Source: Patescibacteria group bacterium (GTDB taxonomy: Bacteria > Patescibacteriota > Minisyncoccia > Phycocordibacterales > PALSA-1337). From it: DNA of 64,000 bases. Of the stretch, positions 3,712-59,348 are shown piece by piece. The position numbers and the translations under genes were made by a program. Location of the stretch: positions 8,865-72,864 of the forward strand of contig JBBTTD010000002.1 of the NCBI GenBank assembly GCA_038064415.1, read 5' to 3'. A model generated the notes under the pieces. The model saw only the letters and a program-made list of their open reading frames with translations, made no database searches and was not told the DNA's origin. How positions within the stretch are numbered: the stretch's first letter is position 1; each line of letters starts with the position of its first letter.

Positions 3712-4791
3712 CTAATTAACCCACTCAACTTCACCCTCAATAGCAATCCCAGTTTTTTCTTTTACTCGTCCCATCAAGTTGCGCGCGAAAGCGACAACTT
3801 CTTCTGATGTCGCGCCGGATTTGGAAACTAAGACTAAAGCATGTCTTTCATAAGTCCCGACATTTCCAATAGTCAAACCTTTGGCATCGCAAATTTTATC
3901 CAAGATCCATCCAAGAGAAACTTTAATTCGTCCATCTGGTTCGGAAAAACCGGGAAGATCGGGGTATTTTTTCGTCAGTTCGGCAAACTTATCCATAGAA
4001 ATTATCGGGTTTTTGAAAAAAGATCCAGCTGTTCCCCACTTTTTCCAGTCTGGTAATTTGATTGCGCGGATTTTAATTACAGCTTGCCGTACTTGATCTA
4101 GAGTCGGCATAAGTGGTCGCTGAATATTTGCCATCCGATTGTCCACCCTTTTCAAAAGGTCATTATCTGAAGTCTGGAATTTATCAAAATATACCCGCAA
4201 ATCCTCATACTCAATATTTACGTTCCCGTTTTTGATAAGTCTAAAATCAACTCTAGTGATGATATAACGACCTTTTTGGCGTTTGAAAACACTATCACGA
4301 TATTCAAATTTACAGTCATCATTAGAAAAATCCACAAACTTCATTGTATTGGTGTCAAAAGCATGAACCGTCAAAATAGAACTGGAAACATCACAACCAT
4401 AAGCGCCGATATTTTGAACGGGTGTCGCGCCGACCGTGCCTGGAATTGAAGATAAATTTTCTATGCCATAAAACCCTTGTTTTACAGCATAATCAACAAA
4501 ATCGTCCCAAACTTCACCCGCGCCAACGGAAAGTAGCGAGGAGAGACCTCGCTGATCAATCCCCTTTATTTCCATCTTAATAACTAATCCAGCGAAACCA
4601 TAATCTCCAACTAAAATATTTGAACCACCACCCAACACAAAAATCGCTAACCTTTTACCTTCAGCAAACCGCACCGCTTCAACTAATTCTTCTTCTTTTG
4701 TAACCTGACAAAAAAAGCGGGCTGGGCCGCCTATTTTGAAAGTCGTATAAGACGCAAGTTTTATATTTTCCTCTATTTTAATCATTGTCAT
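3712..4791 (-). CDS. murB: UDP-N-acetylenolpyruvoylglucosamine reductase (MurB)
   Basis: 359 aa. FAD-binding N-terminal region (YTTFKIGGPARFF...VLGGGSNILV) and a MurB C-terminal domain. Confidence 0.85.
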   Translation of the reverse strand: MTMIKIEENIKLASYTTFKIGGPARFFCQVTKEEELVEAVRFAEGKRLAIFVLGGGSNILVGDYGFAGLVIKMEIKGIDQRGLSSLLSVGAGEVWDDFVDYAVKQGFYGIENLSSIPGTVGATPVQNIGAYGCDVSSSILTVHAFDTNTMKFVDFSNDDCKFEYRDSVFKRQKGRYIITRVDFRLIKNGNVNIEYEDLRVYFDKFQTSDNDLLKRVDNRMANIQRPLMPTLDQVRQAVIKIRAIKLPDWKKWGTAGSFFKNPIISMDKFAELTKKYPDLPGFSEPDGRIKVSLGWILDKICDAKGLTIGNVGTYERHALVLVSKSGATSEEVVAFARNLMGRVKEKTGIAIEGEVEWVN

Positions 4792-7877: not shown

Positions 7878-8974
7878 AATCAAAAACTATGAAAAAGAAA
7901 ACGACAAGGAACGCCAAAAGAAAAAAAGCGCTTATTACAGGAATTACTGGTCAGGATGGATCATACCTTGCAGAACTTCTTATTGAAAAAGGATATGAAG
8001 TACACGGACTCATGAGACGATCGAGCTCATTTAACACTTCTCGTATTGATCATCTTTTTCAAGATCCACATACCAAAGGGAAACTATTCACTGGGAGTTT
8101 TGGCGACCTTTCCGACGCAAGCAACCTCTCGCGCCTTATTGAATCTCTAAAGCCAGACGAAATCTACAATCTTGGCGCACAGAGTCATGTGAGAGTAAGT
8201 TTTGATATCCCTGAATATACAGCTGATGTAGTTGGATTGGGAACACTTCGTCTCTTGGATGCAATTAGAGAAAGTGGGGTTAAGACAAAATTTTACCAAG
8301 CCTCGTCCTCTGAAATGTTTGGAAAAGTAACGGAAATTCCTCAAACTGAAAATACCCCTTTCCATCCTCGTTCACCATATGCAGTAGCAAAAGTATTCTC
8401 ATATTGGATCACCAGAAATTATCGTGAGTCATATAATCTTTTCGCGGTAAATGGGATTCTTTTTAATCACGAATCTCCTCGCCGAGGAAAGACATTCGTC
8501 ACTAAGAAAATTACCCGGGGATTAGCACGTATTAAGCTAGGACTTGATGAAAAATTATACCTTGGAAACCTTGATGCAAAACGCGATTGGGGACATGCAA
8601 AAGATTATGTATACGGCATGTGGTTAATGCTCCAACAAGACAAACCAGATGACTACATACTTGCGACTGGTGAAAATCATTCTGTACGTGAATTCGTTGA
8701 AGAAGTTGCAAAATACTTTGACATCGATCTGATGTGGAGAGGAAAAGGAGTAAAAGAAAAAGGAATTGACAAAAAAACTGGTAAAATAATCATTGAGATT
8801 GATCCTATATATTTTAGGCCAGCTGAAGTTGACCTGCTCATTGGTGATGCATCAAAAGCAAGAAAAAAGCTTGGATGGAAACCTAAAATTCGTTTTAAAG
8901 AATTAGTAAGATTGATGTGCGAACATGATCTGAAAGAAGAAAAATATGCAAAGCAAATTCTTGCAAATGAATAA
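7871..8974 (+). CDS. gmd: GDP-mannose 4,6-dehydratase
   Basis: Near-colinear match to Gmd: [77 protein letters not shown]. Confidence 0.95.
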
Positions 8975-9908
8975 CTATATGAATAAAGAATCAAAAATAT
9001 ATGTAGCTGGACATACTGGTCTCGTTGGAGGAGCAATTTTTAGATTACTTAAACAAAAAGGTTACAAAAATCTTATTGGCAAGACACACACCGAGCTCGA
9101 TCTTGAAAATGAATCACAAGTAAAAACATTTTTTGAAAAAGAAAAACCTGAGTATGTATTTTTATGCGCCGCAAAAGCAGGTGGAATAAAAGACAACAGC
9201 GAGAAACCTGCTGAATTTATTTTAAGAAACCTTAAAATACAGACCAATGTTATAGATACGGCATATAGAAACCAAGTAAAAAAACTTCTTTTTATGGGAA
9301 GCTCATGCATATATCCACGGATTACAGAACAGCCCATTAAAGAGGACTACTATATGACAGGAAAGCTTGAACCGACAAATGAAGCATATGCTGTCGCAAA
9401 GATTGCCGGCATATCAATGTGTCAATCATACAGAAAACAATATGGCTGTGATTTTATTTCTGTCATGCCAAACAACATTTATGGACCAGGTGATCATTTT
9501 GAAATAGAGCGTTCACATGTAATACCTGCTTTGATTCGTAGATTCCATGATGCAAAAAAAGAAAACAAGAAAGAGATCGTGCTTTGGGGTACGGGAGTCG
9601 CAATTCGAGAATTTCTCCATTGTGATGATTTGGCTAGTGCAAGCTTATTTCTAATGAAAAACTACAGAGATAAGGAAATTATTAATGTTGGTACAGGAGT
9701 CGGTATATCAATCAAAGATCTCGGAACAATGATACGGAAGATTGCTGGTTTTGAAGGCAAAATCGTATGGGATTCAACAAAACCTGATGGAATGCCGATA
9801 CGACTCCTTGATGCCTCAAAGATTCAATCGCTTGGTTGGAAAGCGAAAATTGATTTTGATAAAGGCCTAAAGGAAACATATGAATGGTTTATTGAACATG
9901 TTGTATAA
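8946..9908 (+). CDS. fcl: GDP-4-keto-6-deoxymannose 3,5-epimerase/4-reductase (Fcl / ColC-type)
   Basis: [61 protein letters not shown] are Fcl hallmarks. ColC (GDP-colitose synthase) is a close homolog and cannot be excluded. Confidence 0.9.
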
Positions 9909-9926
9909 AAAAATAAAATTAAACCA

Positions 9927-11120
9927 ATGAAAAAATCTACTGGATTTAGGGTGCCACTAGTCAAAAATGCTTTAATAAATAATAAGCAAGCACTGCAGGC
10001 GTTATCCACATTCATTTTGAAGACTGACAGATTAAGCATGGGCAACTATTGTCATGCTTTTGAGCTAGCATTTGCAAAAAAACAAAAACGAAAATATGCA
10101 ATACTTTTCAACAGTGGCGGTAGTGCAAATTTGGCGATGATTCAAACTCTAAAAAACTTGGGTAAGTTAAAAAATAAAGATAAGGTCGGTTTCTCTTCCT
10201 TGACTTGGTCTACGAATGTTATGCCTATAATCCAGTTGGGACTTGAAGCGATTCCAGTAGATTGCGATCCTACAACACTCAACAGTATGTCAAAAAATGC
10301 AATAAAAATATTAGAAAAGGAGAAGTGTTCAGCATTTTTTCTGACAAATGCACTAGGATTTGCTGGAGACATAGACATCATAGAAAAAGAGTGTAAAAAA
10401 AGAGGAATTATTGTGCTTGAAGATAACTGTGAAGCCTTGGGAACTGAACTTAATAAAGGAAAAACTGGAAATTTTGGTTTAGCTTCAAGTTTTTCTTTTT
10501 TCGTTGCCCATCATATGTCAACGATTGAGGGTGGTATGGTCTGTACAGACAACGATAATTTTGCAGAAATGCTCAAAATTGTGAGGGCTAACGGATGGGA
10601 TAGAAACATCAGTCCAGAAAGACAAATCTATTGGAGAAATAAATTTGGAATTGAATCTGATTTTCAAGCCAAATATACTTTCTATGATCTGGGTTACAAT
10701 CTTCGTCCAACTGAAATTACAGGATTCCTAGGCCTACATCAGTTGAAGTTTCTTGATAAAACAACAAAAATCCGTGAAAAGAATTTTAGACGAATTTACA
10801 AAGTTCTCAAAGAGAATGGTGACTTTCTCCCTCTTAACTGGAAACATATAAAGATAATCTCAGCATTTGCCATACCACTTATATGCAAAAATCCAAAGCT
10901 TAGAGAAAAATACATCAGGCGGTTTGAGAAGATGGGAGTAGAAGTTCGTCCAATGATTGCTGGAAATATGCAACGACAACCTTTTTATAAAAAATATTCT
11001 TCTAAAAATTATAACTTACCTGGTGCAGATATTATCCATTATAACGGATTTTATTGTGGTAACTGCCCAGATTACACGGAAGAAGAACTCAAAATAATAA
11101 TAGGCTGCATAAAAAAATGA
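9927..11120 (+). CDS. DegT/DnrJ/EryC1 family PLP enzyme with His replacing the Schiff-base Lys (ColD/E1-like sugar 3-dehydratase)
   Basis: Fold-type I aminotransferase family. At the position of the PLP lysine (FSFFGNKTITTGEGG in perosamine synthase) this protein has FSFFVAHHMSTIEGG, the His substitution characteristic of GDP-4-keto-6-deoxymannose 3-dehydratase ColD and CDP-hexulose 3-dehydrase E1. Confidence 0.65.
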   Translation: MKKSTGFRVPLVKNALINNKQALQALSTFILKTDRLSMGNYCHAFELAFAKKQKRKYAILFNSGGSANLAMIQTLKNLGKLKNKDKVGFSSLTWSTNVMPIIQLGLEAIPVDCDPTTLNSMSKNAIKILEKEKCSAFFLTNALGFAGDIDIIEKECKKRGIIVLEDNCEALGTELNKGKTGNFGLASSFSFFVAHHMSTIEGGMVCTDNDNFAEMLKIVRANGWDRNISPERQIYWRNKFGIESDFQAKYTFYDLGYNLRPTEITGFLGLHQLKFLDKTTKIREKNFRRIYKVLKENGDFLPLNWKHIKIISAFAIPLICKNPKLREKYIRRFEKMGVEVRPMIAGNMQRQPFYKKYSSKNYNLPGADIIHYNGFYCGNCPDYTEEELKIIIGCIKK

Positions 11121-49859: not shown

Positions 49860-49961
49860 CGAGGTATGGTACATGAATTTCATAGGAGTTGTGCTGTATC
49901 ATCAACGAAAGTAATGTGATGGAACAACACAATTCCTATGAAATTCATGTACCATACCTCG
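49860..49961. repeat. Long inverted repeat (34-bp arms, one G-U position, 34-nt loop) in a divergent intergenic region
   Basis: Arm CGAGGTATGGTACATGAATTTCATAGGAGTTGTG (49860-49893) pairs with CACAATTCCTATGAAATTCATGTACCATACCTCG (49928-49961). One position pairs only as G-U, which hints at RNA-level structure. Confidence 0.6.
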
Positions 49962-50008
49962 TATTAAGATGCTTGCGTACTTTCATTCTACAGATTAGAC
50001 TGTTTTGC

Positions 50009-51220
50009 ATGCAACCAGAAGCTAAAATCTACTATATAACCCGTGACATAGAACGCGCCGTAGGAATGACCCCGGGGCCTAATTACCACATCATCTCTAA
50101 CAAAACCCCATATGGTGAATCTATCAAACAACAGTACCCTGATTTTGTAACCTTACTCAATAGTCCAGACGGAAGATCCTTAGGCACCGGCGCCTTAATG
50201 GAACATCCAGAAACCGTCACAATAGTGCCAAGTGGTTCAAGTGTCTTAGTTTTCAAAAATACCGCTAGAATTGAGCCAATCGTCGCGGCAAAAGGTTGGA
50301 AAATGATAAATCCAAAAGCTACCCTATCAGAAACGGTTGAAAATAAAATCAGTCAGGTTGAATGGCTAGGCGAACTGGGTAAAAAATATCTACCAACGCA
50401 TAACATCATAGTCGCTAGACGTTTGACTTGGACCGGTGAACCATTTGTCTTGCAATGGGCGCACGGACATACGGGTGGCGGAACTATTTTGGTCCGTTCT
50501 GAAGCTGAATTGAAATCTCTTCAGCAAAAATTTCCAGAAAGAATGACTAGGCGAACGACATATATTCAAGGGCCGTCTTTTACCATAAACGCGATCGTAG
50601 CCGCGGACAAAATCTTGGTTGGCAACATCAGTTACCAAATCACTGGCTTGGCGCCATTCACGGACAATGCGTTCAGTACTGTCGGTAATGATTGGGCTGT
50701 GCCAAATACCTTACTAAATACCGATGAAATTGAATATATAGAGACGATGGTCAGTGACATTGGAAAAAAATTAAATATTTCCGGTTGGCGTGGTCTTTAT
50801 GGTGTTGATGTGATCAAGGATGACAAGCGCGACACTATTCATTTGATTGAAATCAACGCTAGACAACCAGCTTCAACAAGCTTTGAATCATTTCTGCAAA
50901 ATGAGAATCGCGTAAAAGGTGACGATGGATTTACCACTTTTGAGACTCATCTAAAAGCCATGTTGGGAGAAAAAATTGATAAGCCATTAATTCCGGTAAA
51001 TGACGGAGCACAGATAATCCAACGAATCACGAGATTGAAAAGAGATGTCAATCATAAAATAAAAAATTCACTTGAACTTTCTGGATACCAAGCTGTTATT
51101 TATCAAAACACAGAATACAACACTGATCTGATTAGGATTCAGAGTTTAAAAAATATCACGGAGGGAAATGGAAAACTTAATGAGAATGGCAGAAAGATAG
51201 TTAGTATAATTTCTGATTAA
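50009..51220 (+). CDS. ATP-grasp domain protein
   Basis: The track ORF starts at 49889 inside the inverted repeat, so it is trimmed to Met41 (MQPEAK, ATG at 50009-50011). The C-terminal GLYGVDVIKDDKRDTIHLIEINARQ is an ATP-grasp signature. Confidence 0.6.
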   Translation: MQPEAKIYYITRDIERAVGMTPGPNYHIISNKTPYGESIKQQYPDFVTLLNSPDGRSLGTGALMEHPETVTIVPSGSSVLVFKNTARIEPIVAAKGWKMINPKATLSETVENKISQVEWLGELGKKYLPTHNIIVARRLTWTGEPFVLQWAHGHTGGGTILVRSEAELKSLQQKFPERMTRRTTYIQGPSFTINAIVAADKILVGNISYQITGLAPFTDNAFSTVGNDWAVPNTLLNTDEIEYIETMVSDIGKKLNISGWRGLYGVDVIKDDKRDTIHLIEINARQPASTSFESFLQNENRVKGDDGFTTFETHLKAMLGEKIDKPLIPVNDGAQIIQRITRLKRDVNHKIKNSLELSGYQAVIYQNTEYNTDLIRIQSLKNITEGNGKLNENGRKIVSIISD

Positions 51221-52266: not shown

Positions 52267-53037
52267 ATGAACACCAAAACTCTCTCAAACCGCGCACTTT
52301 CAACTATTAATCAGTATCTTAATTTTAGAGTTGGGACTGCTGTTTGTTCTATTCCCTATTTCAATAACAAAACAATAAAAGCCCGAGCCACTTTGCGTGC
52401 CTATGGTGGAAAAGGTAGTCCAAAAGATATCTTTGAAGAAATTCAAACAATCGCGGTAAAATCTCACGTGAATATTGAATCTCTGACCAATGAGTCACTA
52501 AAAAAAATACTCACGGACAATAATATCGGAATTGATTGTTCGGGTTTTGTCTATTATATACTCAATGCTCAAAGTGAAGAATTGAAAAACGAGACTTTAG
52601 ATAGACGCCTATCATTCGTAAATTGTCACGGACTTATCGGTAAAATCAGATGCTCACTTCGCCCAATTGAAAATTGTGATGTTGGAACTCTAGCTCATGA
52701 CAAAAATAGTCTGACTGTTCCAATTAAAGAAATCTCACCTAGCGATATAATTACGATGATTGGTGATAGTGAAGAAAACGAACACGATCACATTCTCGTC
52801 ATACACCAAGTTGAATACCAAAATTTTATTCCTTGCAAAATTCATTACTCACACGCTGTCGCATATCCTGAAGATGGTATTTATGGTACAGGGATCAGAC
52901 AAGGTACAATTGAAATAGTTGACCCAGATAAATCAATTTCGGAAGCGCGTTGGATTGAAAATAATAAAGAAGGAGTTGCCAATAGGATCTTTATCAGAGC
53001 AACAAAATCGAAAACAGAGATGAGGAGGTTGAGGTAA
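52267..53037 (+). CDS. NlpC/P60-like (papain-fold) cysteine peptidase/amidase family protein, no signal peptide
   Basis: GIDCSGFVYYIL (a catalytic-Cys motif like DCSGLV) and a downstream SDIITMIGDSEENEHDHILVIH (a His partner in the position of GDLVFF...HVGIY). Confidence 0.45.
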   Translation: MNTKTLSNRALSTINQYLNFRVGTAVCSIPYFNNKTIKARATLRAYGGKGSPKDIFEEIQTIAVKSHVNIESLTNESLKKILTDNNIGIDCSGFVYYILNAQSEELKNETLDRRLSFVNCHGLIGKIRCSLRPIENCDVGTLAHDKNSLTVPIKEISPSDIITMIGDSEENEHDHILVIHQVEYQNFIPCKIHYSHAVAYPEDGIYGTGIRQGTIEIVDPDKSISEARWIENNKEGVANRIFIRATKSKTEMRRLR

Positions 53038-53235: not shown

Positions 53236-54372
53236 GTGTACTTCATGATAACAATCCTAGAAGGTACCGCTGATTTGGCCTATATCATGGGTTTTGCGCT
53301 TATTGGCACGGTAGCGGCATATTTATGGGCGCCACTTTTGATTAAATTCCTGTATCATTTTCACATCATAAAAGGACCAAAAAGTGAGCTCACTATGCTC
53401 GGTTCACATGCATATAAAGCCACTACACCAGTCATGGGCGGACTTCTGGTTGTGATCACTGTCGCGGTAATTACCTATTTTTTCAATTGGTCCAGATCAT
53501 TCACTTATGTGCCAATCGGCGTGATGATCATATCAGCCGCTTTGGGCGCGATTGATGACATCATGAATATTTACGGTAGCGAAAGACGCTCTAGAAAACT
53601 TGGACATATCGTCAATCTGATTAAGATTCACAGAGAACTGAAGATGCGCGTTTGGTACATTATCACTTTTCCTTGGAGCGCGTTCAAACGCATGTCAGTT
53701 TGGTTTGGTTCGCGGACAAATAAAGGAGTTTTTGTCCATGAAAAATTGATTCTGCAATTTATCGCCGGTTCAATCACTGCTTGGTGGATTTATACCAAAC
53801 TCGGACCGGCATGGCATTATATTTATCTTCCTTTTGAAACTGGATTTGACCTTGGTTGGATCATTATCCCAGTTGTTATTTTTATAGTGATGTTCACGGC
53901 AAACGCGGTTAATATCGCCGATGGGATGGATGGCTTGGCTGGTGGAATGTTGATTACGACTTTCAGCGCGCTGACTATTTTGTCTTGGATTAACGGTTTT
54001 GGTGAAATCGCTATTTTAAATGCCACAACCGTCGGAGCATTGGTTTCTTATACTTATTTCAATATCAAACCGGCTAGATTTATGATGGGAGATATCGGAT
54101 CTCTCGGTCTCGGCGCGCTTTTAGCGGTCAACGCCATGGCTATTGGCGAAACTATTTCTCTGTTCTTCCTCGGTTTTATGTTTTATGTTGAAGCCTTATC
54201 GGTGGTCATCCAAGTTGCTTCTAGATATATTTTTGGTCGTAAAGTCTTCAAAATGGCGCCATTACATCATCATTTTGAATTAAAAGGTTGGAGTGAAGAA
54301 AAAACCGTGATGCGATTCTGGGTGGTACATTTTATCTTTGTGGTATCTGGATTTTGGCTGGCGTTGCACTAG
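53236..54372 (+). CDS. mraY: Phospho-N-acetylmuramoyl-pentapeptide transferase (MraY)
   Basis: MraY signatures: DDIMNIYG, NAVNIADGMDGLAGG, GDIGSLGLGA, APLHHHFE. There is an extra cytoplasmic loop insertion relative to typical MraY. Confidence 0.9.
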   Translation: MYFMITILEGTADLAYIMGFALIGTVAAYLWAPLLIKFLYHFHIIKGPKSELTMLGSHAYKATTPVMGGLLVVITVAVITYFFNWSRSFTYVPIGVMIISAALGAIDDIMNIYGSERRSRKLGHIVNLIKIHRELKMRVWYIITFPWSAFKRMSVWFGSRTNKGVFVHEKLILQFIAGSITAWWIYTKLGPAWHYIYLPFETGFDLGWIIIPVVIFIVMFTANAVNIADGMDGLAGGMLITTFSALTILSWINGFGEIAILNATTVGALVSYTYFNIKPARFMMGDIGSLGLGALLAVNAMAIGETISLFFLGFMFYVEALSVVIQVASRYIFGRKVFKMAPLHHHFELKGWSEEKTVMRFWVVHFIFVVSGFWLALH

Positions 54373-54451: not shown

Positions 54452-55162
54452 ATGGATCACAATTTTCACGGAGATGACAAGAATAAATTCGTATTACATA
54501 TTATGAACTACCTCCACTGGGACAAAAAAACAATAACTGATTTCTCTGGAAAAAATATCACCAATCTTTATAATCAAGGTTATGTTTTTACTCGTCTTGG
54601 TAAGGGAGTAATGCATCAGACGCGATCTGTAAGAATAAATCTTGCAAAATTTGAACCGACCAGTGAAAACAAAAGAATTCTCAAAAAAGTTGATGACATC
54701 GCCATGCAAGAAGTGACATTACCTTACGGAGAATATCACTGGTCCCTAGGAAAACTCGCCCAAGATTTTTATGAGGCAAAATTTGGCTCGGGAATTATGA
54801 GTACGCAAAAAGTAAAAGAAATGCTCACTGATAAAGAAAAAAGTAATTTTAATATTCTACTTATATTCTCAAACCCACAAGACATAATTGGATATGTGAT
54901 CTGTTATTTAGACTCTGAAATTATTCATTATAGTTATCCATTTTATGATCTAGGGAAATCATCAAAAGATATGGGTTTGGGAATGATGACAAAAACAATC
55001 CAGTATGCCAAAGGAAAGGGTCTGAAATATGCTTATTTGGGTTCCCTTCAACGGTCAGGAGATACTTATAAAATTCAGTTTGATGGTCTAGAATGGTTTG
55101 ATGGAAAAAGTTGGCAGACTGATATTAAAGAAGTGAAGAAAATCCTGGCAGCAATTATATAA
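54452..55162 (+). CDS. Bpt/ATE-like aminoacyl-tRNA--protein transferase family protein (ATE_N-like without Cys cluster, plus ATE_C)
   Basis: YNQGYVFTRLGKGVMHQTRSVRINLAKFEPTSENKRILKK resembles the ATE_N GWRRSG...R region. The C-terminal YAYLGSLQRSGDTYKIQFDGLEWFDG matches the ATE_C consensus (YLGYWI...M.YK..F.P.E). Confidence 0.5.
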   Translation: MDHNFHGDDKNKFVLHIMNYLHWDKKTITDFSGKNITNLYNQGYVFTRLGKGVMHQTRSVRINLAKFEPTSENKRILKKVDDIAMQEVTLPYGEYHWSLGKLAQDFYEAKFGSGIMSTQKVKEMLTDKEKSNFNILLIFSNPQDIIGYVICYLDSEIIHYSYPFYDLGKSSKDMGLGMMTKTIQYAKGKGLKYAYLGSLQRSGDTYKIQFDGLEWFDGKSWQTDIKEVKKILAAII

Positions 55163-55170
55163 AATTTGAT

Positions 55171-56634
55171 ATGACAAAAAATTCTGTTCAAAAAATACCC
55201 GCGCACCTCCACATCATCGGCATCTGCGGTGTCGCTACTAGTGCCTTGGCAATTGCTTTTCACAAGAAGGGCGTAAAAGTGACCGGAAGCGATAAGGGAT
55301 TTTTTCCTCCAGTTTCAATTGAATTAGAGAAACAAAAAATTGAGTTCTACGCTGGTTGGCATCCAGAAAAGATGGTCGCGAATGGTAGACCGGATACTAT
55401 TATAATCGGCGGTGGCGGAACTAGTCCTTCAAATCCCGAAATTATTTACGCCAAAGAACATAACATTTCTGTTTATTCATACGCGGAAATTCTACAAAAA
55501 TATTTCATCAAAAAAAATTCAATCGTTGTGACAGGAACCTGGGGAAAAACAACCATTTCCGCCATGCTTTCATTCGTTCTTTTGAGAGCCAAAATGGATC
55601 CAAGTTATTTTACCGGCGGACTTTCACTTTCTCATGATACCGGCGCGTTGTCCGATTCAAATTGGAGTGTGGTTGAAGGCGATGAATATCAAGTTTCAAT
55701 TTCTGATCATAGACCAAAATTTGTCTACTATTCCCCTACTTATCTAATTTTGACTTCAGTGTCTTGGGATCATGCTGATTTATATCCAACAGAAAAGGCA
55801 TATTTTGATGAATTCAGAAATTTAGTCAATAAAATTCCAGAAAATGGAAAAATCGTTGCTTGTATTGATAATGATGGAGTGAAAAAAATTATTGGAGACA
55901 AATTAGAATCTGGCGAAAGAATCATTACTTATGGAAAAACTGCCGGTACAAATTATCAATATGATTCAGTCATTCCGACAAAAAATGGCTTGGATTTCAT
56001 AATTGAATCAGCGCGGGGTAGACCAGCGCACGCGTCATTCAAGATTCACTCGCCAATGCTCGGTCGCTTCAATGCTGAAAATATCACCGCAGTATTCGCT
56101 ATGGCTAGTGAAGTTGGGATCAAACCGGAAAAAATAATCAAAGCTATTGCTGAATTCAAAGGAATAAAACGCCGATTTGAGAAACGGTTTGAAGGTGAAA
56201 TAACCGTCATGGATTGTCACGCTCCAACTCCCGAAAAAGCAGCATCGGTGTTGGAAAATATCAAAGAAGTATATAAAAATAAAATAATCGCGGTTTATGA
56301 ACCGAATATCGGCGGACGACAAAGAAGTTCCGCAGGAATGTATGATGGCGCCTTTAAAGATGCTGATATCGTGATTGTCCCGCGATTAACAAAACTAAAG
56401 ATTGAGCGAGGTCCGACCTCGCTAGCGAGGTCCGACCTCGCTCAAAAACCTCTGGAGGGCGATGAATTGGCGCGAATTATTGGTAAAACACACACCAATG
56501 TCCACTATTTAGCAAATGATGAGGATCTAGTCACATTTTTGAAGTCAGAAGCAAAAAGAGGTGATATGATCGCCTTTCTCGGCTCACATGGCTTCAGGGG
56601 AATGATTGAGGAGACAGTAAAAAAATTCCAATAA
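55171..56634 (+). CDS. Mur ligase family: UDP-N-acetylmuramate--L-alanine ligase (MurC) or Mpl-type ligase
   Basis: N-terminus HIIGICGVATSALAIAF...VTGSD is MurC/Mpl-type. P-loop VVTGTWGKTT. The C-terminal domain carries the inserted palindrome. Confidence 0.75.
   Translation: MTKNSVQKIPAHLHIIGICGVATSALAIAFHKKGVKVTGSDKGFFPPVSIELEKQKIEFYAGWHPEKMVANGRPDTIIIGGGGTSPSNPEIIYAKEHNISVYSYAEILQKYFIKKNSIVVTGTWGKTTISAMLSFVLLRAKMDPSYFTGGLSLSHDTGALSDSNWSVVEGDEYQVSISDHRPKFVYYSPTYLILTSVSWDHADLYPTEKAYFDEFRNLVNKIPENGKIVACIDNDGVKKIIGDKLESGERIITYGKTAGTNYQYDSVIPTKNGLDFIIESARGRPAHASFKIHSPMLGRFNAENITAVFAMASEVGIKPEKIIKAIAEFKGIKRRFEKRFEGEITVMDCHAPTPEKAASVLENIKEVYKNKIIAVYEPNIGGRQRSSAGMYDGAFKDADIVIVPRLTKLKIERGPTSLARSDLAQKPLEGDELARIIGKTHTNVHYLANDEDLVTFLKSEAKRGDMIAFLGSHGFRGMIEETVKKFQ
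56402..56445. repeat. 44-bp GC-rich near-perfect palindrome (tandem 20-bp units) inserted in-frame in the Mur ligase gene
   Basis: TTGAGCGAGGTCCGACCTCGCTAGCGAGGTCCGACCTCGCTCAA matches its own reverse complement at 42 of 44 positions. ~60% GC against a ~35% background. It encodes ERGPTSLARSDLAQ. Confidence 0.6.
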
Positions 56635-56655: not shown

Positions 56656-56829
56656 CTACTTCCCTTCGTCAACAATATCCGTCTCAACCGCGCCATCAGA
56701 AGCAATTTCCTTAACAAGTAAAGTCATGCCACAATGGTTACATTCTATAACCATGCCCATTGAGAGATTCGGGTAACGAGACAAATCAATAGTATTTTTA
56801 CATTCAGGGCACACACAAAGCATATTCAT
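56656..56829 (-). CDS. LysW-like zinc-ribbon protein (amino-group carrier protein-like)
   Basis: From the internal Met (MNMLCVCPECKNTIDLSRYPNLSMGMVIECNHCGMTLLVKEIASDGAVETDIVDEGK). It parallels LysW (CPECGAEI.L......GEIIECPDCGAELEV) with an acidic C-terminal tail, but ends in DEGK rather than the Glu-terminal EDWGE. Confidence 0.45.
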   Translation of the reverse strand: MNMLCVCPECKNTIDLSRYPNLSMGMVIECNHCGMTLLVKEIASDGAVETDIVDEGK

Positions 56830-56925
56830 AGTTTTAAGGTTTTGATGAAACATTATCCAGTAAAGTACGATTATAATCGCGCTTTCCATAGTAACCGAAA
56901 AAGTGTAATATGGCAATTGTAATTT

Positions 56926-57801
56926 ATGATTACCCCATTAGAAAAATTCAATGGTTTGGCTAAAGTTCTAAAGACTAAAGAGCTTTATTTCAAGCGCGAA
57001 GACCTACATCCATACGGCTCTCACAAGGGTCGTTCTATCCCTATAATGATTGACCACTATTACCAGAATGGTGATCGTACTTTTGCCATTTCAAGTTCAG
57101 GAAATGCGGCATTAGCGGCGGCAATACACGCTCAAAAATTAAATAACATTAAGCTGGATATCTTCGTCGGAAATCATGTATCGCCAGAAAAGTTGAAAAA
57201 AATTCGCGCGATTGCCGAAAAAAGTATTGGGAATATTCGCGTTTTGGTAAAAGAACGGCCACTTCAAGCTCTGATTCAAGCGACACAAGAAGGCGTTCGA
57301 AGCTTGCGCCAATCTACTGATGACCAGGCTTTGATGGGTTATCAATCATTAGCTGAAGAACTGACGCAAACCTATAATGCGCAAAAAATCGGCGCTATTT
57401 TTATTGGCACTTCTTCAGGCACGACTGCCCAAGCGCTCGCTCAATATTTTTTGGATAAAAAAATTCCAATTCAAGTCCATATCATCCAAACATCTTCATG
57501 TCATCCAATTTCAGAACAATTTGAACCATATGACGGGCCAGATGAACGATCAATTGCCGATGCCATCACAGACATTACCGGACACAGAAAATCAGCGCTT
57601 ATGCCTTTAATAGAAAAAACCGGCGGAAAAGGTTGGATTGCCACAAATGAAGATATTAAAACCGCGCAAAAATTGGTCAGTGAACATACTAAATTAAATA
57701 TTTCCACGAATAGCGCGCTCTCAATTGTTGGGATAATGAAGGCAAATTATGTCGGACACAAAATAGACGGCGCGATAGTTTGCATGATTTGTGGAGAATG
57801 A
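56926..57801 (+). CDS. Fold-type II PLP-dependent enzyme (cysteine synthase/CysK-like, PALP family)
   Basis: KREDLHPYGSHKGRSIPIMID matches K.E..NP.GS.KDR..L.MI, so the PLP-Lys is present. SSGNAALAAAIHAQKL matches TSGNTG.ALA..AA. 291 aa. Confidence 0.65.
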   Translation: MITPLEKFNGLAKVLKTKELYFKREDLHPYGSHKGRSIPIMIDHYYQNGDRTFAISSSGNAALAAAIHAQKLNNIKLDIFVGNHVSPEKLKKIRAIAEKSIGNIRVLVKERPLQALIQATQEGVRSLRQSTDDQALMGYQSLAEELTQTYNAQKIGAIFIGTSSGTTAQALAQYFLDKKIPIQVHIIQTSSCHPISEQFEPYDGPDERSIADAITDITGHRKSALMPLIEKTGGKGWIATNEDIKTAQKLVSEHTKLNISTNSALSIVGIMKANYVGHKIDGAIVCMICGE

Positions 57802-57929: not shown

Positions 57930-59348
57930 TTAAATCCCCCTAACCGCCCTGACAAATCTCTCGCCTCTCTCAATTTTAGAACCATCAGCCCCACCAGCGC
58001 CAAAGCCGGGACTAAAAAGCACTCGATCACCTTTTTTCGCGTGATCCAAAGCTGACCTCACCGCTTCTTCAATGTTTGGCGCGGAATAAATCGTCAGTCC
58101 GCCAACTTCTTGCAGAATGGCGCGTTGCCTCAATGTTCCACTACCTGGAATGTTTATCAGCGTATGGACATATCTAGGCAACTCAATATAAAGAGTCCGA
58201 TAATCATGACCAACATCCGCGCCGCCAAAAATTAAAACAATATTTCTGTCTTTAGATAAAGCCATGATTCCAACTAAAGTAGCGTCAGGAGTAATGGACA
58301 TCGTATCATTATAAAACTCAATACCTTTGACTTTTTTAACTAATTCCAACCTACCTTTCAAAGATCTCCATTTGCTAAAAACATTTCGCGCGGTGTCTTC
58401 ATCGGCTTTAAAAATCTGAGCCGTCTGGAGTGCCAAAGCGGCATTTGAACGATCGTGTATACCACTACCAGAAAAACCCCAATCCGCTGGTATAAGTGAA
58501 GACTTGGTGCGCAACATTTTGGCCTTGGGCTGAAATTTCATCGCTCTAGTGGCGTCAATAATCTCGTCGGATGCCACAATATAATTGTTATATGTTTGAT
58601 ACGCTAATATTTCAAAAGGTGATGAAATGTACGAATTTTTTGAAGGTATGCTGGTAAATATCGCCACATGAGGACTGATTCGTAATGTATTTAATTCCGG
58701 CAAAATCAAATCAACTATTCGCATCAAAACAATATCGCCGCTTTTGACTTTTCTTAGATGCGCGAGAATCCCATCTGATGATTCTGGATCGAGAATAAAG
58801 AGATCCTGTGTTTCATATTCTTTACAGACTTTTTCTAAAATCGGTCCAAGAATTGAAATAACCGTGGATTTACCACAACAACCAATCACTCCGATCAGAG
58901 TTATGGGTGGCGCCAATCTAAAGAAAAGGGTTTCGGGATATTCAACGACAATAACTTTATTTCTTTCTTTATCCACGACTTTAATTTCACTTTCAGATTT
59001 TTCCGTGCTTAATTGATCACTGATATTTGATGCTTGATTATTACCATAAACCTCCTTTAAGAATGAGGAATCGCGCGGATATTCATGTGAAAGAATTATC
59101 ATATCCATGTCCAAAAGGTCTTCAGCTGGAATAGAACCGCAAACATAATTGGCCAAACCAATAGAACGAAGAAAAATCAGATGATTTTTCAAACGCGCCT
59201 CACTTTTCAAATCATATATTGAGACCCAAGCTCCGGCTTTGATCAAATATTTAACATCCTCAACCATTTCTCCATGAATACCAAGACCAATAACCGCGAT
59301 GCGTTTGCCTTTGAAATAATCACGGGAAGCCATGTAACTATTATACAA
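57930..59348 (-). CDS. murD: UDP-N-acetylmuramoylalanine--D-glutamate ligase (MurD)
   Basis: N-terminal Rossmann motif KRIAVIGLGIHG, Mur ligase P-loop LIGVIGCCGKST, and a C-terminal domain. Confidence 0.85.
   Translation of the reverse strand: MYNSYMASRDYFKGKRIAVIGLGIHGEMVEDVKYLIKAGAWVSIYDLKSEARLKNHLIFLRSIGLANYVCGSIPAEDLLDMDMIILSHEYPRDSSFLKEVYGNNQASNISDQLSTEKSESEIKVVDKERNKVIVVEYPETLFFRLAPPITLIGVIGCCGKSTVISILGPILEKVCKEYETQDLFILDPESSDGILAHLRKVKSGDIVLMRIVDLILPELNTLRISPHVAIFTSIPSKNSYISSPFEILAYQTYNNYIVASDEIIDATRAMKFQPKAKMLRTKSSLIPADWGFSGSGIHDRSNAALALQTAQIFKADEDTARNVFSKWRSLKGRLELVKKVKGIEFYNDTMSITPDATLVGIMALSKDRNIVLIFGGADVGHDYRTLYIELPRYVHTLINIPGSGTLRQRAILQEVGGLTIYSAPNIEEAVRSALDHAKKGDRVLFSPGFGAGGADGSKIERGERFVRAVRGI

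Follow-up and report, generated by a model that had tools for sequence, protein, structure and literature searches.

What does a relative of the ATE and Bpt transferases do inside a block of genes for peptidoglycan precursors? The question is raised by a stretch of 64,000 nucleotides (the window) from contig JBBTTD010000002.1 of a Patescibacteria group bacterium. A gene on its plus strand (54503..55162) encodes a protein of 219 amino acids that is homologous to the ATE/Bpt aminoacyl-tRNA transferases and lacks their cysteine cluster. The gene is positioned between mraY and a murC-like Mur ligase gene. To our knowledge, the only established role of the ATE/Bpt family is to mark proteins for degradation at their N-termini, and tRNA-dependent branching of peptidoglycan is known only for the FemABX family. 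The original prediction for this locus proposed that the protein aminoacylates a peptidoglycan precursor. Because of the gene context and the conserved residues, we lean towards the same reading, in which the protein adds an amino acid from an aminoacyl-tRNA (aa-tRNA) to a peptidoglycan precursor and not to proteins. At the genomic level, the proposal is supported by the linkage of the gene to mur genes across differently arranged loci.

The open reading frame (ORF) at this position (54452..55162, plus strand) encodes 236 amino acids, and its first codon had previously been taken as the start of the protein. Translation probably starts at the methionine codon at 54503 (MNYLHW...) because the 100%-identical NCBI protein P0001 begins there, as do the gene call on the same contig and nearly all of the 25 aligned homologues, which share the N-terminus M-x-Y-L-x-W. 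The 17 additional codons (54452-54502, MDHNFHGDDKNKFVLHI) are probably untranslated. The corresponding residues are present in no homologue and in neither gene call, and the 130-nt spacer between mraY and the ATE-like gene is therefore real. P0001 is a protein from a 'Patescibacteria group bacterium'. The JGI pipeline name for this kind of protein is 'arginyl-tRNA--protein arginylyltransferase'. The window protein contains a single cysteine (residue 134) and hence has no CxxC...CC cluster.

Sequence comparison indicates that the protein is homologous to ATE and Bpt, but distantly. Its match to the Pfam domain ATE_C (PF04377) has a score of 22.6-22.8 bits (E = 1.7e-4), which is under the gathering score of 25. 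The NCBIfam models of the Bpt-type 'arginyltransferase' (PRK01305) align to residues ~56-225 of the 236-residue ORF with a best score of 49.6 bits (E = 3.5e-13), and their cut-offs of 170-358 are missed. The shared part is the C-terminal GNAT core (ATE_C; E ~1e-13 for the Bpt models), and the overall size is close to that of Bpt (~220-260 amino acids). An exhaustive profile search of 1.84 billion cluster representatives identified 515 cluster representatives at 50% identity with E <= 1e-3, 241 of them with E <= 1e-10. With only 515 representatives, the family is small, and it stands clearly apart from the much larger canonical Bpt/ATE family. All of its named sources are Patescibacteria, a group of ultra-small bacteria also called the candidate phyla radiation (CPR).

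Two subfamilies were distinguished, which are ~30% identical to each other (E = 5e-38). Type A, to which the window protein belongs, occurs in Paceibacteria/Parcubacteria and has the N-terminus M.YL.W..KTITDFS..GYVFTR. Type B occurs in Microgenomates, including Shapirobacteria; it has the N-terminus MKLFFSE..Y..Y.FPY...GFLP.. and a C-terminal extension of ~40 residues. Residues G26, R41, R44, S54, N56, R58, F147, G158, G180, Y189, K190, and W204 are invariant in both. ATE_C is the best Pfam family (E <= 0.01) of 24 of the 25 type-A and 33 of the 36 type-B members (57/61), and some type-B members pass its gathering score (P0178, 30.1 bits). A type-B representative scores 50.1 bits against the NCBIfam arginyltransferase models, likewise under the cut-off. 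The 61 members have no Pfam match to ATE_N, FemAB (PF02388), or Leu_Phe_trans (PF03588), and neither they nor the window protein match DUF2156. The alignments of type A, type B, and both combined contain no conserved cysteine column. The original description of the protein as an ATE-family member without the N-terminal cysteine cluster thus holds, in that the similarity is weak but real, and the profile searches assigned the family to no unrelated group. Two homologues carry additional C-terminal sequence: P0257 (373 amino acids) has a C-terminal extension, and P0258 (809 amino acids) combines the ATE-like domain with a long C-terminal region that, by eye, resembles a PPDK_N ATP-binding domain followed by a PEP-utilising swivelling-histidine domain.

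The AlphaFold2 model of the window protein, calculated with 25 homologues, has a pLDDT of 94.2 and a pTM of 0.91. The predicted structure has the two-lobed GNAT-type fold of aa-tRNA transferases with an aromatic-lysine pair, and the 219-residue protein contains no long hydrophobic or membrane segment. In a Foldseek comparison with the PDB, the top ~40 matches are aa-tRNA-dependent transferases, and the first exception is the acetyl-CoA enzyme VipF at rank 41. The best match is human ATE1 (8tzv_A, E = 1.4e-8, TMq 0.70); yeast and K. lactis ATE1 are also among the top matches. The aminoacyl-phosphatidylglycerol synthases A-PGS (4v35) and L-PGS (4v36) are ranked second and fourth, and MprF is ranked 12th. 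Structures of FemX (1xf8, 1ne9, 4ii9, and 7z5y) were matched with E of ~5e-7 to 3e-6 and TMq of 0.51-0.56, and the L/F-transferase 2dpt at rank 48 (E = 1.4e-5, TMq 0.49). Searches of PDB sequences with the protein (phmmer) and with the type-A profile (hmmsearch) returned nothing meaningful.

The catalytic residues of the ATE family are retained. In K. lactis Ate1 (klAte1), the pair Tyr303-Lys304 is essential, the K304A variant is inactive, and the pair is equivalent to Phe304-Lys305 of FemX and to the catalytic lysine of A-PGS and L-PGS (PMC9351520). The invariant dyad Tyr189-Lys190 of the window protein (55067..55072, plus strand) aligns with Tyr303-Lys304 of S. cerevisiae Ate1 (ScAte1) in both hmmsearch and hhalign. 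The mapping was made with the type-B profile, for which hmmsearch against the PDB and hhalign (E = 1.3e-4, 73 columns) agree; the type-A profile gave only an 8-column chance match to ScAte1 in hhalign, and the broader type-B profile was required. The ScAte1 reference sequence is identical to 8e3s_A in 502 of 503 positions. Shared with Bpt and ATE1 are also the motifs R..R..F..SxxRR, xYxFYD, xLGxx, YLG, and YK. The first of these forms a basic block, R41-S-V-R44 ... S54-E-N-K-R58 (54623..54676, plus strand), which corresponds to the 'R..v..F..s+sqRR' segment at the ATE_N/ATE_C junction of Bpt. The alignments to the NCBIfam Bpt models start at this block, at model positions ~72-78.

The residues that determine specificity differ from those of both known enzymes. 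The arginine pocket of klAte1 is formed by Ser255, Ser273, Glu277, and Tyr289, and the equivalent residues in leucine-specific Bpt are Ala, Ala, Gln, and Leu (PMC9351520). In the profile alignments, the position of Ser255 is occupied by Tyr143 of the HYSYPFYD motif (54926..54949, plus strand), and those of Ser273, Glu277, and Tyr289 by Met161, Thr165, and Ala177 of the GLGMM ... YLGS segment (54974..55045, plus strand). Thr165 is replaced by alanine in most members. The pocket thus contains no acidic residue and fits neither the ATE1 (S, S, E, Y) nor the Bpt (A, A, Q, L) pattern. Because an acidic residue is missing, the arginyltransferase label given by the annotation pipeline is doubtful; it is probably wrong, and the donor amino acid is probably not arginine. 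The bulky tyrosine and methionine in the pocket are a low-confidence hint of a small or neutral donor amino acid.

The part of ATE1 that recognizes proteins also appears altered. In klAte1, the acidic residue at the N-terminus of a protein substrate is recognized by Arg80, the first arginine of the GFRRSG motif in ATE_N, and the zinc ion of the ATE_N finger is bound by four cysteines (PMC9351520). The probable counterpart of GFRRSG in the window protein, identified by eye, is GYVFTR (54578..54595, plus strand; GFLP.. in type B). In this comparison the arginine pair is replaced by Val-Phe in type A (GYVFTR) and by Leu-Pro in type B (GFLPxx), and the HMM and hhalign alignments stop short of the motif. 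The CC of the zinc finger has no counterpart in the N-terminal lobe, as judged by eye in a lobe that is not alignable by HMM methods. On this by-eye reading, the residue that recognizes acidic N-termini has probably been lost.

These residues bear on the possibility that the protein is still a transferase acting on the N-termini of proteins or peptides, in a Bpt-like N-degron or regulatory role, and that it is merely housed in dcw/mur operons, where it perhaps modifies a wall-synthesis protein. Bpt and ATE1 are its closest relatives in sequence and fold, the pipelines call it an arginyltransferase, and two members (P0387 and P0371) occur away from wall genes. However, such a role is unlikely given that the ATE_N domain with its zinc-finger cysteines is missing, that the arginine pair of GFRRSG appears replaced, that the scores are far under the Bpt equivalog cut-offs, and that the genes are linked to Mur ligase or alanine racemase (alr) genes in at least six layouts. 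The original prediction had named adjacent clpS-type partners as a finding that would speak for the N-degron pathway. No ClpS-like ORF was detected in 143 sequences (1.7 Mb, +/-8-10 kb around the genes), which is a weak test, as the only query was one E. coli ClpS sequence. Canonical genes of this kind are associated with aat or clpS, whereas the window family is located in mur/dcw operons and has been found so far only in CPR/Patescibacteria. The family should not be filed as Bpt or arginyltransferase because the ATE_N domain and zinc finger, the score thresholds, the donor pocket, and the N-degron context all fail.

The gene context links the family to the synthesis of peptidoglycan precursors. 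In the window, the gene upstream of the ATE-like gene is mraY (53236..54372, plus strand), which encodes phospho-MurNAc-pentapeptide transferase (Glycos_transf_4, 85.5 bits; TIGR00445, 184.6 bits). The downstream gene (55171..56634, plus strand) starts 8 nt past the ATE-like stop codon and encodes a murC-like Mur ligase with all three domains, which scores 246.9 bits against TIGR01082, under its cut-off of 335. The type-A context was studied in 80 loci taken from 239 confirmed matches, with one genome per species and 53-78% identity. In every locus with enough flanking sequence, mraY is directly upstream and the murC-like gene directly downstream, and the murC-like gene is followed by genes for a small zinc-ribbon protein, a PALP enzyme, and a murD-like ligase. 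The wall-gene neighbourhood is thus kept in 80 close relatives, which is weak evidence alone as the loci are collinear, and it is also kept in lineages with a different gene order, so the expectation of conserved synteny in the original prediction is borne out.

The dcw operon of Microgenomates has the order mraZ-rsmH-(ftsL)-ftsI-murE, ATE-like gene, murC-murB-murA-(ddl)-murF-mraY. This layout was found in essentially all of 55 metagenome loci with enough flank. The metagenomes were scanned with a tight type-B alignment, as a diverse one offered too few conserved stretches. The start of the type-B gene overlaps the murE stop by 4 bp, and NCBIfam confirms MurE, MurC, and MurF beside it. The Microgenomates MurE (411 amino acids) and MurF (401 amino acids) of locus L084 (6769-8004 and 13464-14669) align to their models only from position ~65-70 onward, which suggests that the N-terminal UDP-binding domain is missing from both; murE cannot be extended upstream, because ftsI ends 23 nt before it.

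A further arrangement is found at loci L137 and L138, where the ATE-like proteins are 35-37% identical to type B. The order of genes is murF-like, DegT aminotransferase, FemAB-family gene, murE-like, relA/spoT (minus strand), ATE-like, murC, and mraY, followed at a distance by ATP-grasp_3 and ftsW. The FemAB protein of L138 is genuine (143 bits) and matches no ATE-like ORF. At L138 (3031-5300), the DegT-type aminotransferase gene and the genuine FemAB gene lie between murF-like and murE-like. The MurC encoded next to the L138 ATE-like gene (8786-10873) has 695 amino acids, including a C-terminal extension of ~280 residues without a Pfam match. Among single loci, the gene for P0385 overlaps the upstream alr by 4 bp, the genes for P0337 and P0270 each directly follow a Mur ligase gene and have otherwise unrelated neighbours, and the loci of P0304 and P0146 are uninformative.

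Altogether, at least six distinct layouts place the ATE-like gene beside a gene for a peptidoglycan-precursor enzyme, mostly a Mur ligase, and the ATE-like-murC pair is common to three of them. A random gene would flank a Mur ligase gene with a chance of roughly 1%, for a genome of ~800 genes with four Mur ligases. The adjacency has been kept while the surroundings were reshuffled, which argues for co-expression under selection. Tandem paralogues in the style of femA/femB were not found in 136 loci. Clusters of unlabelled ORFs that recur next to the genes are mostly antisense shadow ORFs, and real insertions, such as genes for a DUF218 protein and a secreted protein, are sporadic. Promoters and terminators were predicted in numbers near the shuffled expectation.

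The position of the type-A gene directly after mraY, which makes a lipid-linked intermediate, raises the possibility that the protein aminoacylates another molecule of the envelope. Candidates would be a lipid hydroxyl (as with MprF), a glycan linked to undecaprenyl, and a hydroxyl or amine on a sugar of the wall precursor. The catalytic domains of A-PGS, L-PGS, and MprF are among the best fold matches (ranks 2, 4, and 12), and both an O-antigen-ligase-like gene and an extensive glycan cluster are found in the window. We nevertheless consider such a target improbable, because membrane and flippase domains are missing from the protein, its motifs are ATE-like and not DUF2156-like, and its constant neighbours are genes for Mur ligases, which build the peptide in the cytoplasm, and Alr, not lipid or glycan genes.

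Several observations weigh against the transfer of an amino acid to a peptidoglycan precursor. The lineages are uncultured, and the function proposed for the protein comes from gene context and conserved residues. The whole 15-kb type-A region is collinear, including the unrelated genes DUF4015, TP_methylase, RadC, and pyruvate kinase, and the 80 type-A loci therefore amount to about one observation. The ATE-like gene could be next to murC simply because an ancestral gene order was inherited, without selection to maintain it. The divergent and mutually related P0387 and P0371 are encoded beside RsgA/MazG and unrelated genes, and no dedicated or recurrent tRNA gene was found near the clusters. 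The lineage of L137/L138 already has a bona fide FemAB protein, so the ATE-like protein may act otherwise there and not be a universal substitute for Fem enzymes. The mapping of the acceptor-site arginine (Arg80) was made only by eye. Furthermore, the GNAT core weakly matches acyl-CoA acetyltransferases (Acetyltransf_1, Acetyltransf_6, and Acetyltransf_7 in part of the family), and the best PDB sequence match of the type-B profile is the acetyltransferase 3d8p (E = 1.3e-4). These matches would fit an ordinary GNAT enzyme that takes its acyl group from acyl-CoA, not from aa-tRNA, and N-acylates either an amino acid or a wall precursor. We consider such an activity very improbable, as the invariant Tyr-Lys dyad, YLG(S/T), and SENRR are hallmarks of ATE/Bpt and not of acetyltransferases, and the full-length fold best fits the two-lobed aa-tRNA transferases.

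If the protein does transfer an amino acid to a peptidoglycan precursor, it may be envisaged as a soluble cytoplasmic aa-tRNA-dependent transferase derived from ATE/Bpt by loss of the zinc-finger N-terminal module, with its gene co-transcribed with those of Mur ligases. Its donor aa-tRNA would carry an amino acid other than arginine, probably a small or neutral one, which would be moved to a free amine of UDP-MurNAc-peptide or of lipid I/II. Because aa-tRNA is found in the cytoplasm and the protein lacks membrane segments, the reaction is expected to take place on these substrates, with lipid I/II modified at the inner face of the membrane. An aa-tRNA donor requires an amine or hydroxyl acceptor (a hydroxyl in the case of MprF). 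The product of the murE gene beside the type-B gene passes the equivalog model for the diaminopimelate (DAP) type with 419.7 bits (cut-off 373), and the arginine of its DNPR motif is kept, as EDPR, in 39 of 43 sequences. Position 3 of the stem peptide is therefore expected to hold a diamino acid that offers a free amine. The acceptor could be the epsilon-amine of this residue or the alpha-amine of a branch residue that is already attached. If a first branch residue were extended at its alpha-amine, the chemistry would be the same as that which ATE and Bpt perform on N-termini. The donor, the acceptor, its reacting amine, and the identity of the amino acid are inferred from the features described above. 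Replacement of a Mur ligase step was considered as a separate possibility and rejected, since an aa-tRNA donor cannot activate the carboxylates of MurNAc or the stem peptide, and MurC, MurE, and MurF are present alongside.

With the proposed activity, the protein would be a counterpart of FemX/MurM in function, derived from the ATE lineage. It would share with FemX, FemA, FemB, MurM, and MurN the aa-tRNA-dependent addition to a peptidoglycan precursor, and it resembles FemABX proteins (PF02388) in fold superfamily, in the equivalent aromatic-lysine dyad, and in the linkage of its gene to mur genes. In contrast, it lacks a FemAB match, is ~100 residues shorter than FemX, and has ATE-type motifs, and a genuine FemAB gene coexists with the ATE-like gene in the L137/L138 cluster. 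FemX, FemA, and FemB act sequentially, and the coexistence of the two genes would fit an analogous order of action. MprF and the aminoacyl-phosphatidylglycerol synthases (DUF2156) are likewise aa-tRNA-dependent enzymes of the same fold; however, they esterify a lipid hydroxyl, MprF genes are not linked to mur genes, and the window protein has neither the membrane domain of MprF nor a DUF2156 match. The L/F-transferase Aat is an aa-tRNA-dependent enzyme with a GNAT fold and similar size, but it has different catalytic residues and belongs to the ClpS N-degron pathway, and the window family does not match Leu_Phe_trans.

The remaining genes of the wall block were identified with Pfam and NCBIfam, which confirmed the block described originally (mraY, ATE-like gene, murC-like gene, a gene for a pyridoxal phosphate (PLP) enzyme, and murD-like gene), with the murD-like gene on the minus strand. 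The genes for the zinc-ribbon, ATP-grasp_3, and NlpC/P60-like proteins are additional neighbours. The small zinc-ribbon protein (56656..56916, minus strand) has an acidic C-terminal tail and an uncertain start, with methionine codons at 56889 and 56829. It is characterized by the pattern CPEC...C..CG and the tail ...ETDIVDEGK, and lies between the murC-like and PLP genes in nearly all type-A loci. Its best matches are to the amino-group carrier LysW (Pfam, 21.6 bits against a threshold of 27; PDB 3wwl, E = 0.35), both sub-significant, and the likeness is only a hint. Should it prove to be a genuine carrier, it could work with the nearby ATP-grasp enzyme. The PLP enzyme (56926..57801, plus strand; 291 amino acids) is of fold type II (PALP), with threonine synthases and serine dehydratases as distant relatives only (PDB E ~1e-6). 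Its gene is kept in the type-A wall block, and the enzyme may supply an unusual or D-amino acid. The divergent murD-like ligase (57930..59348, minus strand) aligns with TIGR01087 only over its own C-terminal half (residues 245-470), with 109.5 bits (cut-off 212); it has a weak MurD-like_N match, no Mur_ligase_M match, and an unusually divergent central region.

Upstream of mraY, type-A loci keep the gene of an ATP-grasp_3 enzyme (49889..51220, plus strand; 443 amino acids), which has no solved relative at E < 0.01. A homologue (E = 1.7e-15) is encoded next to ftsW at L138 (13034-14380), and the enzyme may be a wall-associated amino-acid ligase. In practically every type-A locus, the gene just before mraY encodes an NlpC/P60-like protein (in the window 52267..53037, plus strand; 256 amino acids, sub-threshold match). 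The rest of the window contains murB (3712-4791), secA, and a large cluster for glycan synthesis; genes for murE, murF, ddl, penicillin-binding proteins, ftsW, and fem were not found within the 64 kb. The region 5218-31000 encodes a Wzy_C/TPR protein followed by the glycan cluster, which includes a GDP-mannose 4,6-dehydratase, epimerases, a DegT protein, an ABC-2 exporter, a CmcI-type methyltransferase, an asparagine synthase, a B12-radical SAM enzyme, and glycosyltransferases of the types GT2, GT11, and GT1. The Paceibacteria-type block also occurs on several contigs of metagenome-assembled genomes labelled 'Saccharibacteria', 'Gammaproteobacteria', or 'Arenimonas' (L005, L008, L009, L016, L040, L075, and others), which are probably taxonomic mislabels or mis-binned contigs.

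In the full-text literature, of which the coverage is incomplete, nothing was found that describes the ATE-like clade or, for CPR, a tRNA-dependent branching of the wall. We tentatively suggest, as a possibility held less firmly than the activity of the window protein itself, that a CPR-specific, cysteine-less branch of ATE/Bpt acts as a peptidoglycan-precursor aa-tRNA transferase. The branch may have been recruited or retained independently of FemABX and may build a branch or bridge not known until now in the walls of Paceibacteria, Microgenomates, and lineages related to them. The hypothesis is directly testable with recombinant protein, aa-tRNA, and UDP-MurNAc-peptides. If it is true, the widespread automatic annotation 'arginyl-tRNA--protein arginylyltransferase' would be corrected, a third route would be added, and the chemistry of the ATE family would be extended to wall precursors. 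It would also predict an undescribed peptidoglycan chemotype for CPR, a sizeable and scarcely cultured share of bacterial diversity. The finding would bear on the origin of the N-degron transferases as well: if the CPR clade is basal, Bpt and ATE1 may descend from a cell-wall enzyme.

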